A stretch of DNA of 64,000 nt from Escherichia coli (GTDB lineage Bacteria; Pseudomonadota; Gammaproteobacteria; Enterobacterales; Enterobacteriaceae), in NCBI RefSeq assembly GCF_029227855.1, contig NZ_CP074356.1; one strand, 5' to 3'. Within the stretch, counting starts at the first letter, position 1. Every line of letters begins with the position of its first letter. The translations under genes were made by a program, and so were the position numbers. Below the pieces are notes generated by a model. It made no database searches. It was not told where the DNA came from and worked only from the letters and a program-made list of their open reading frames with translations. This document shows, one piece after another, positions 14,464-15,710 of the stretch.

Positions 14464-15710
14464 TGAGGTAGCCTGAGTTTAACGGACACTCCTTCCTGAA
14501 ATAGAATGGCATCAGAAGGAGCTAATAATGAGCAGAAAAACCCAACGTTACTCTAAAGAGTTCAAAGCCGAAGCTGTCAGAACGGTTCTTGAAAATCAAC
14601 TTTCGATCAGTGAAGGCGCTTCCCGATTATCTCTTCCTGAAGGCACTTTAGGACAATGGGTTACCGCCGCCAGAAAAGGGCTCGGTACTCCTGGTTCCCG
14701 CACGGTGGCTGAACTGGAATCTGAAATTCTGCAACTGCGTAAGGCGTTAAATGAAGCTCGCCTTGAGCGAGATATATTAAATTGCACAGGAGTCGCTGAA
14801 AAATACGCGTTAATCGAACAATGGCGACAACAATTTCCCATTGAAGCGATGTGTCAGGTATTTGGTGTATCCAGGAGCGGTTATTACAACTGGGTACAGC
14901 ATGAACCCTCAGACAGAAAACAAAGTGATGAGCGGCTAAAACTGGAGATTAAGGTGGCACATATCCGCACTCGCGAAACATATGGAACCCGGCGGCTCCA
15001 GACGGAGCTGGCAGAGAATGGCATCATCGTTGGTCGTGACCGACTGGCACGTCTTCGTAAGGAGCTAAGGCTACGCTGTAAGCAGAAACGCAAGTTCAGA
15101 GCGACTACGAACTCGAACCACAATCTGCCAGTTGCGCCAAATCTGCTGAACCAGACGTTCGCTCCTACAGCACCAAATCAGGTCTGGGTGGCGGACCTGA
15201 CGTATGTTGCCACACAGGAGGGATGGTTGTACCTCGCTGGCATCAAAGATGTTTATACGTGCGAAATTGTCGGCTACGCCATGGGAGAGCGCATGACAAA
15301 AGAGCTGACAGGTAAAGCCCTGTTTATGGCGCTCAGGAGCCAGCGCCCACCTGCCGGGCTAATCCACCACTCTGATCGAGGTTCACAGTACTGCGCATAC
15401 GATTACCGGGTCATACAGGAGCAGTTTGGTCTGAAAACATCAATGTCGCGTAAAGGTAACTGTTACGACAACGCTCCGATGGAAAGCTTCTGGGGAACGC
15501 TGAAAAATGAGAGCCTGAGCCACTATCGTTTTAATAACCGGGATGAAGCCATCTCAGTAATACGGGAATACATTGAGATTTTCTACAATCGTCAGCGTCG
15601 TCACTCTCGTCTGGGGAATATCTCCCCGGCAGCCTTCAGGGAAAAATATCATCAGATGGCTGCTTAAAAAAAGAACAAATGGTAGTGTCCGCTATTGCCA
15701 GTACACCTCA
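14464..15710 (+). mobile_element. IS600-like (IS3 family) insertion sequence with orfA-orfB fused in frame
   Basis: Terminal inverted repeats tgaggtagcctgagtttaacggacact (left) and agtgtccgctattgccagtacacctca (right); single 379-aa transposase ORF; no flanking target site duplication. Confidence 0.75.
14528..15667 (+). CDS. IS3-family transposase, naturally fused OrfAB form (HTH N-terminus + DDE integrase domain)
   Basis: One continuous ORF; N-terminal MSRKTQRYSKEFKAEAVR... orfA-type domain followed by the DDE core (WVADLTY..., HSDRGSQY..., CYDNAPMESFWGTLK). Confidence 0.85.
   Translation: MSRKTQRYSKEFKAEAVRTVLENQLSISEGASRLSLPEGTLGQWVTAARKGLGTPGSRTVAELESEILQLRKALNEARLERDILNCTGVAEKYALIEQWRQQFPIEAMCQVFGVSRSGYYNWVQHEPSDRKQSDERLKLEIKVAHIRTRETYGTRRLQTELAENGIIVGRDRLARLRKELRLRCKQKRKFRATTNSNHNLPVAPNLLNQTFAPTAPNQVWVADLTYVATQEGWLYLAGIKDVYTCEIVGYAMGERMTKELTGKALFMALRSQRPPAGLIHHSDRGSQYCAYDYRVIQEQFGLKTSMSRKGNCYDNAPMESFWGTLKNESLSHYRFNNRDEAISVIREYIEIFYNRQRRHSRLGNISPAAFREKYHQMAA

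Follow-up and report, generated by a model that had tools for sequence, protein, structure and literature searches.

How does an insertion sequence (IS) whose transposase depends on a programmed frameshift come to carry that transposase in one uninterrupted frame, and does the fusion release the element or silence it? The question is raised by an IS600 copy in a 64,000-nucleotide stretch of the Escherichia coli contig NZ_CP074356.1 (assembly GCF_029227855.1), referred to here as the window. A preliminary description of this DNA had proposed an IS600-like element in which orfA and orfB form a single frame of 379 amino acids (aa), and the open reading frame at 14528–15667 together with an alignment to IS600 bears this out. 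On balance, we favour a reading in which the fusion is a 17-bp footprint left by the loss of a second element, IS30, on an IS600 copy that is fixed, frame-fused and immobile.

The element at 14464–15710 is 1247 bp long, whereas canonical copies measure 1264 bp. An alignment to the IS600 copy on plasmid A of Shigella sonnei 53G (1264 bp, with a clean 3-bp target duplication, CTG/CTG) showed identity at 1247 of 1247 positions, with 0 substitutions and one 17-bp gap. The preliminary description, which put the shortening at about 17 bp and called for this alignment, was therefore exact on this point. Plasmid records matched the window element as IS600 throughout, and four of them carried the identical 1247-bp form. 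Its terminal inverted repeats are 27 nt long, imperfect and 70% complementary (left end TGAGGTAGCC, right end ACACCTCA); they have the 5'-TG ... CA-3' ends of the IS3 family. The native promoter and ribosome-binding site region is retained. Judged by its sequence, the element is IS600, and by its ends and transposase it is a member of the IS3 family. Programmed frameshifting and a target duplication are missing, and both absences are derived states rather than signs of a different ancestry. The parts of the element are as follows.

14464–15710, plus strand: IS600 copy with a 17-bp internal deletion, by alignment to canonical IS600; flanked by CAA on the left and ACA on the right.
14464–14490, plus strand: left terminal inverted repeat (IRL), starting with TG, the same as in the canonical copy.
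14528–15667, plus strand: fused orfA-orfB frame, 379 aa, with an HTH_Tnp_1 N-terminus, a three-heptad zipper remnant, HTH_21 and the DDE domain (rve).
14776–14790, plus strand: deletion junction ATTAAA/TTGCACAGG, lying between 14781 and 14782 and spanned by codon N85 (14780–14782).
14800–14808, plus strand: orphaned 3' arm of a stem-loop, AAAATACGC, from RNA fold prediction.
14811–14813, plus strand: former orfA stop codon TAA, now out of frame, from frame translation.
15194–15484, plus strand: catalytic triad codons D223 (15194–15196), D283 (15374–15376) and E319 (15482–15484), plus K326 seven residues further on; invariant alignment columns, all intact.
15684–15710, plus strand: right terminal inverted repeat (IRR), ending with CA, the same as in the canonical copy.

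The missing 17 bp correspond to IS600 positions 319–335, shown in brackets within the canonical sequence ATATTAAA[AAAAGCAACAGCGTATT]TTGCACAGG. The deletion removes four of the seven slippery adenines (A7 becomes A3), the GCAACA spacer and seven of the nine nucleotides of the 5' arm of a stem. The preliminary description had named a reference with the same continuous frame as the finding that would undo its reading; canonical IS600 instead encodes an OrfA of 100 aa, and a −1 slip on the A7 run (TTA-AAA-AAA) yields an OrfAB of 385 aa that reads ...DILKKSNSVFCTGV... Since 17 equals 18 − 1, the deletion brings orfA into frame with orfB. The programmed −1 frameshift cassette is destroyed, the two genes are joined in one 379-aa frame, and the window copy lacks the two overlapping frames with a frameshift on an A-run that typify the IS3 family. 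At the coding level, it can produce neither OrfA nor the programmed frameshift. The fusion had been attributed to the loss of both the slippery run and the orfA stop codon. The cut from A7 to A3 does join the frames, but the stop codon is still present and merely out of frame.

In the canonical element, the slippery run is followed by an inverted repeat with 9-nt arms, GCGTATTTT...AAAATACGC. The predicted stem-loop has a free energy of −13.1 kcal/mol and lies about 5 nt after A7, whereas the window sequence is predicted to fold at −3.9 kcal/mol with the stem gone. This stem-loop is a putative frameshift stimulator because of its position and IS3-family precedent; its fold is unexceptional against shuffled sequences (z = −1.2), and no Rfam family represents the IS600 frameshift signal, the lone match, a snoRNA (E = 0.23), being due to chance. 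As an annotation detail, the OrfAB proteins joined by the NCBI annotation pipeline (P0002, P0003 and P0020 in our protein set) read ...DIFKKSN...; the NCBI frameshift models for IS600 set the slip one codon before the tandem slip on A-AAA-AAA, which would give ...DILKKSN...

The site of the deletion is one at which IS30, an element that transposes by a copy-out-paste-in route, has inserted repeatedly. IS30 (1221 bp, with an AC duplication) lies inside IS600 at GCAAC/AGCG in K-12, in strain MLI106K4 (where ISEc52' and BCCT flank the copy) and, in the opposite orientation, at the hchA locus. At least two independent insertions must therefore have hit the same AC dinucleotide. The target is palindromic at 7 of 10 positions around AC, and GCAACAG also occurs in the IS30 end visible in one retrieved sequence (L027). 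IS30 prefers nearly palindromic hot spots and its own ends, and precise excision that regenerates a target other than an inverted repeat does not occur (PMC9333248); its loss must therefore be illegitimate and scar-forming. The insertions and the deletion alleles at the site are listed below, with the handles of the retrieved sequences.

IS600 positions 326–327 (GCA[AC]AGCG), both orientations: IS30 within IS600 at L026:1824–3049, L027:3323–4548 and L028:3323–~4543; the equivalent in the window is deleted at 14781/14782.
Strains IAI39, CE10 and NCTC86: 3-bp deletion of the AGC directly after AC, keeping A7 and the two frames.
L035:301–1551, invasion-type plasmid of FDAARGOS_945: 13-bp deletion, out of frame, with no coding sequence annotated.
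L003:301–1550, plasmid pINV (CP119444) of enteroinvasive E. coli (EIEC): 14-bp deletion, frame-fused, 380 aa, with an intact ACC duplication.
L031:2937–4120, also L032 and L033 (protein P0079), php/PTE locus: 80-bp deletion, frame-fused, 358 aa, with a TCT duplication, interrupting a phosphotriesterase-family gene.

One further allele connects these lesions with IS30. In E. coli B (C3029, L030:2501–3764), the IS600 copy at the BCCT locus has the full 1264 bp but reads GCAAC-TGTAG-ATTTTGC in place of GCAAC-AGCGT-ATTTTGC, and TGTAGATT within it is the 8-nt tip of IS30. This remnant allele shares both flanks and the single-nucleotide polymorphism G95A with the IS30-bearing allele of MLI106K4, and its sequence identifies it unambiguously as a scar of IS30 loss. 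It occurs in roughly 700 RefSeq records, an estimate by rank in a spread listing. The A7 run and both frames are kept in this allele, and its OrfAB reads KKSNCRF, not KKSNSVF. The 3-, 13-, 14- and 17-bp deletions all cover or abut the AC dinucleotide, and the 17-bp deletion extends 7 bp to its left and 8 bp to its right. The 14-bp deletion was absent from the complete E. coli genomes of RefSeq when searched with a 130-bp query, and the 14- and 80-bp frame-fused alleles were each seen at one locus. The 17-bp deletion thus overlaps a documented IS30 insertion point and has relatives that retain IS30 sequence, whereas the 17-bp allele itself showed neither an IS30 remnant nor a direct precursor. 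Loss of IS30 is the best explanation of the 17-bp deletion, and from these alignments we consider it fairly probable.

Several findings limit that confidence. The 17-bp junction contains no IS30 base and no microhomology. An intermediate of the form lpxM–IS600::IS30–BCCT was not found among 5426 complete E. coli genomes in RefSeq, and the left-junction counts leave room for none. The window allele also lacks G95A; its 5' part must therefore come from another IS600 copy, which is one reason for not rating an IS30 origin higher.

The alternative that survives best is that the 17-bp deletion arose spontaneously and independently of IS30, the A7...T4 quasi-palindrome having undergone replication slippage or hairpin processing; the consequences for the transposase would be the same. 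We regard this as possible, though distinctly the less probable origin. It would account for the lack of an IS30 remnant at the junction and of an IS30-bearing intermediate at the lpxM junction, and the region does contain an A-run, a T-run and a 9-bp inverted repeat. Moreover, the unrelated in-frame 80-bp deletion arose between 7-bp GCGTTAA direct repeats, which means that the region can lose DNA without IS30. The 17-bp deletion, by contrast, has no flanking direct repeat that would explain slippage. A spontaneous origin would also leave to coincidence that five small lesions (the TGTAG remnant and the 3-, 13-, 14- and 17-bp deletions) lie on or abut a 2-bp site hit twice by IS30, one of them holding a literal IS30 tip.

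The preliminary description mentioned neither the IS30 hot spot nor the other deletion and remnant alleles, and the literature searched held no description of IS30 insertion into the IS600 frameshift window. Many IS600 fragments in O157:H7 and other chromosomes begin at about IS position 333, and a fragment in K-12 ends at 327. These boundaries at the IS30 site suggest repeated truncation by IS30-mediated deletions.

The next question is what the fusion did to the protein. The fused frame contains ...LERDILNCTGVAEKYALIEQWRQQFP... and reads ...DILNCTGV... across the junction. The exact protein is RefSeq WP_000088357.1, named 'IS3 family transposase' and present on at least 1000 contigs. NF033516, the NCBIfam profile for IS3 transposases, matched over positions 1–369 of 369 in one stretch, with 400 bits against a cut-off of 160, and the Pfam families HTH_Tnp_1, HTH_21 and rve are on record for the fused product. 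The helix-turn-helix (HTH), leucine zipper and DDE domain with D-D-E-K of an IS3-family transposase are all present, the zipper being shortened to three heptads. At the junction, K85-K86-S87-N88-S89-V90-F91 (KKSNSVF) of OrfAB is replaced by a single N. In an alignment that includes natural IS911–IS600 chimeras, L70, A77, L84 and F91 of IS600 coincide with d positions of the IS911 zipper heptads; the link runs through P0086, whose N-terminus we take to resemble IS911 orfA. Because these positions align, the lost K85–F91 block would be the fourth zipper heptad. In full-length homologues (Azoarcus, Geobacter, Janthinobacterium), at identities as low as 60%, the motif KKxxx[V/Y][F/L]C is conserved, with constant length and a hydrophobic residue at 91. 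The zipper of IS911 OrfAB comprises four heptads; both IS2 and IS911 require a zipper for end binding and for transposition, and zipper mutations in IS2 abolish the two (PMC3219604). From this comparison, the fused protein is probably impaired in the dimerisation and end binding that IS3-family transposases need.

Two observations on related proteins concern the same region. In several chimeric transposases from S. flexneri and E. coli contigs (P0085, P0086–P0088 and P0090), the N-terminus derives from the orfA of other IS3-family elements and the C-terminus from IS600 OrfB. The parts are joined at the ...ILKK frameshift position, and members of the family seem to recombine, or to form chimeras, at the recoding site. 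Proteins labelled ISSfl10 (376 aa, in the same cluster) were considered as another fusion and ruled out, as they carry a 9-aa deletion in the catalytic domain and have a normal frameshift region.

Genome counts describe how the allele has behaved. Junctions were searched with 40-mers, each half of which falls short of the 28-base seed; a 70-bp query merged the halves of canonical copies. For the frameshift region 130-bp queries were used, as A/T-rich 40-mers lose their seed to the low-complexity filter of BLAST and give unreliable negatives. The exact deletion junction was found in 460 of the 5426 genomes (about 8%), including O104:H4 outbreak isolates. Its 40-mer hit 461 records at 468 places; the median per genome was 1 and no genome had more than 2. 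The lpxM-flank/IRL 40-mer hit 489 records at 496 places, a surplus of 28 records and 28 places. Exactly 28 records (IAI39, CE10, NCTC86 and others) carry the 3-bp-deletion allele at this lpxM junction, and in aggregate the counts are thus consistent with a location of all 17-bp-deletion copies there. In the seven two-copy records, a second lpxM junction accompanies the second copy (by matching left-junction counts), which indicates duplication of the whole lpxM–IS module. All 20 distinct contexts retrieved for this protein and a two-residue variant had the shf-capU-virK-lpxM side in common, or its IS1-reduced remains; some of the retrieved contigs were 4.5-Mb genomes with an aadA1/IS1 neighbourhood. 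The best frameshift-region match fell within the identity band expected for the 17-bp-deletion allele in 451 records, and about 98% of the 461 carrier records (chromosomes) had no canonical or remnant-bearing IS600 covering that region. Canonical IS600, for its part, occupies up to 43 places per genome.

These counts bear directly on the second alternative, namely that the fusion yields a constitutive OrfAB without inhibitory OrfA and hence a hyperactive or deregulated IS600, possibly a source of transposase acting in trans. The preliminary description had implied as much. Part of its claim stands, in that no OrfA is encoded; the product, however, is not native OrfAB, KKSNSVF having become N. 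The idea has clear attractions, as the single frame, inverted repeats, promoter and ribosome-binding site region and DDE triad are all intact, the full IS3 transposase profile is matched in one stretch, and engineered frame-fused OrfAB is the standard means of overproducing active IS911 and IS2 transposase (PMC2909936, PMC3219604). Engineered fusions, however, add one base and keep the OrfAB sequence (PMC2909936), whereas the window allele is missing the fourth zipper heptad, from a segment whose length homologues keep constant. Nor were daughter copies with the same deletion seen at new sites, either in the aggregate junction counts across the 5426 genomes or among the retrieved contexts, all of which were on the lpxM side. 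This counts against an unregulated active transposase because a copy-out-paste-in element would leave daughters carrying the deletion. The population data (a single junction across 460 genomes, one copy as the median, usually no other IS600 spanning the frameshift region) contradict the implied hyperactivity, and we consider this alternative unlikely.

Some observations nevertheless count on the other side, against an impaired and immobile element. In the AlphaFold monomer model, which was built from 15 sequences and is usable for residues 1–190 only (predicted local distance difference test score 70–88, against <50 in the catalytic domain), the zipper helix stops at residue 87 and residues 88–94 are coil. 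Part of the lost segment would then lie in coil, which favours an active fusion; the loss may shorten a linker rather than break a helix, and hence could be tolerated. The absence of spread is population evidence and not a measurement of activity, and the placement of all copies at lpxM rests on matching aggregate counts rather than on record-by-record checks. With 0 substitutions relative to the canonical copy, the allele may also be young.

According to the IS30-footprint reading, events would have run as follows. IS30 would have inserted at GCA[AC]AGCG within the IS600 frameshift window and then been lost by illegitimate recombination, leaving the 17-bp deletion as its footprint. This loss would have destroyed the frameshift cassette and welded orfA and orfB into the 379-aa frame. 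The fused protein, without its fourth zipper heptad, would dimerise and bind ends poorly, and the copy would behave as an immobile relic rather than as a deregulated, hyperactive element. A bolder combination can also be imagined, in which the IS600 frameshift cassette is a recurrent IS30 target, sloppy IS30 loss creates transposase alleles, and the constitutive, OrfA-free protein of the 17-bp allele, although inactive on its own rearranged copy, mobilises plasmid-borne canonical IS600 and possibly triggers Shigella-like IS bursts. We regard it as speculative and rather improbable.

The history of the locus is relevant to a further alternative. Within the fec / shf-capU-virK-lpxM island, the IS600 copy is fixed between lpxM/msbB2, on its upstream side, and a BCCT transporter gene downstream of it. 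Its neighbours are as follows.

13403–14347, plus strand: lpxM/msbB2, which closes the shf-capU-virK-lpxM module; the sequence 3' of it, as far as 14463, makes up the left junction common to the 17-bp-deletion copies.
15815–17818, plus strand: BCCT-family transporter gene; the IRR/BCCT junction predates the deletion allele and is more widespread (1494 genomes).

The element is not flanked by a 3-bp target duplication: CAA on the left faces ACA on the right, and the other right flanks, GGT near dcuC and TAT near hchA, are also unmatched. The 14- and 80-bp-deletion copies elsewhere have intact duplications (ACC/ACC and TCT/TCT). The missing duplication indicates rearrangement after insertion. 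The version with the dcuC flank has a divergent IS600 3' end and two amino-acid changes at the transposase C-terminus, while the hchA right flank is that of another IS600 copy, found at the hchA locus in other strains. The alternative right flanks look like products of recombination between IS600 copies and not of transposition. Most of the genomes with the IRR/BCCT junction have, like E. coli B and K-12, a different left neighbour, an ISEc52 fragment beside the fec operon. In the window, the lpxM module has therefore been joined secondarily to an older IS600–BCCT junction.

Such a setting might suggest a copy co-opted by the host, with the fused DNA-binding protein or read-out transcription serving BCCT control or repression of incoming IS600. 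The reading frame is intact, the allele is very widespread, and the IS end lies 104 bp upstream of the BCCT start codon. However, the IRR/BCCT junction is kept equally well with remnant-bearing, 3-bp-deletion and IS30-interrupted alleles, the right flanks are freely exchanged, and 0 substitutions relative to canonical IS600 make a test for selection impossible. We consider co-option very improbable. The weakest alternative, a sequencing or assembly artefact, has nothing in its favour beyond the fact that homopolymer runs are error-prone in some technologies, and it can be set aside along with the concern over an assembly error in the preliminary description, as the exact junction recurs in 460 independently assembled complete genomes and at least 1000 contigs and a 17-bp loss is not a homopolymer miscall.

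Other features of the region were noted in passing. About 83 bp between lpxM and IRL (14381–14463) form a repeat found with 98–100% identity in many plasmids and chromosomes. Elsewhere it adjoins IS66, a flavin monooxygenase gene, tail-fibre genes and others, and it possibly derives from the end of another mobile element. In O104:H4, a group II intron (ltrA) splits an ISEc52-like remnant beside fecE (L004:8515–10812). The window has no intron at that spot; an intron lies inverted about 12 kb away (22117–24416), inside another IS3-family copy (21404–22209...). The preliminary description had stated that the other IS3-family copies in the window keep separate orfA and orfB. This holds for the IS3-like copy at 19438–20609 on the minus strand (orfA 102 aa, orfB 288 aa, 4-nt overlap), but the other pieces examined (9307–10306 and 21404–22209) are fragments.

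The literature searched contained no description of the 17-bp-deletion allele, although databases already list it with a generic name. An active fused protein would mean an unregulated IS3-family transposase in about 8% of E. coli, with consequences for genome instability and for the expansion of IS600 in Shigella and EIEC lineages. The findings point instead to an inert relic, and the allele is probably not a hazard. What appears most noteworthy is the natural allelic series at one recoding signal, apparently created by IS30 as it repeatedly strikes and remodels the regulatory site of another insertion sequence. The series amounts to a natural mutagenesis set on how much of the fourth zipper heptad and the linker an IS3-family transposase needs. 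In addition, the 17-bp junction, the 3-bp deletion and the TGTAG remnant can serve as lineage markers for the fec / shf-capU-virK-lpxM island.

Comparison with known systems places the window copy more precisely. It shares its inverted repeats, promoter region, OrfA N-terminus and DDE domain with canonical IS600 (IS3 family, IS3 group; 1264 bp; Shigella sonnei), but lacks the slippery run, the stem-loop, separate OrfA and OrfB, the 3-bp target duplication and multiplication. The other natural lesions of IS600 (the remnant and the 3-, 13-, 14- and 80-bp deletions) resemble it in that the frameshift window is affected in every one. Engineered frame-fused OrfAB of IS911, IS2 and IS3, made by adding one base in the A-run, is likewise a single HTH–zipper–DDE open reading frame with no OrfA and no frameshifting (PMC2909936, PMC3219604). 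These laboratory fusions keep the OrfAB amino-acid sequence and are active, whereas in the natural fusion one residue stands in place of seven at the fourth zipper heptad, and the population data for it show no activity. The IS30 events follow the hot-spot targeting described for that element, with a 2-bp duplication, a nearly palindromic target, reuse of the site in both orientations and loss without restoration of the target (PMC9333248); they differ in that the target here is the translational recoding signal of another insertion sequence.

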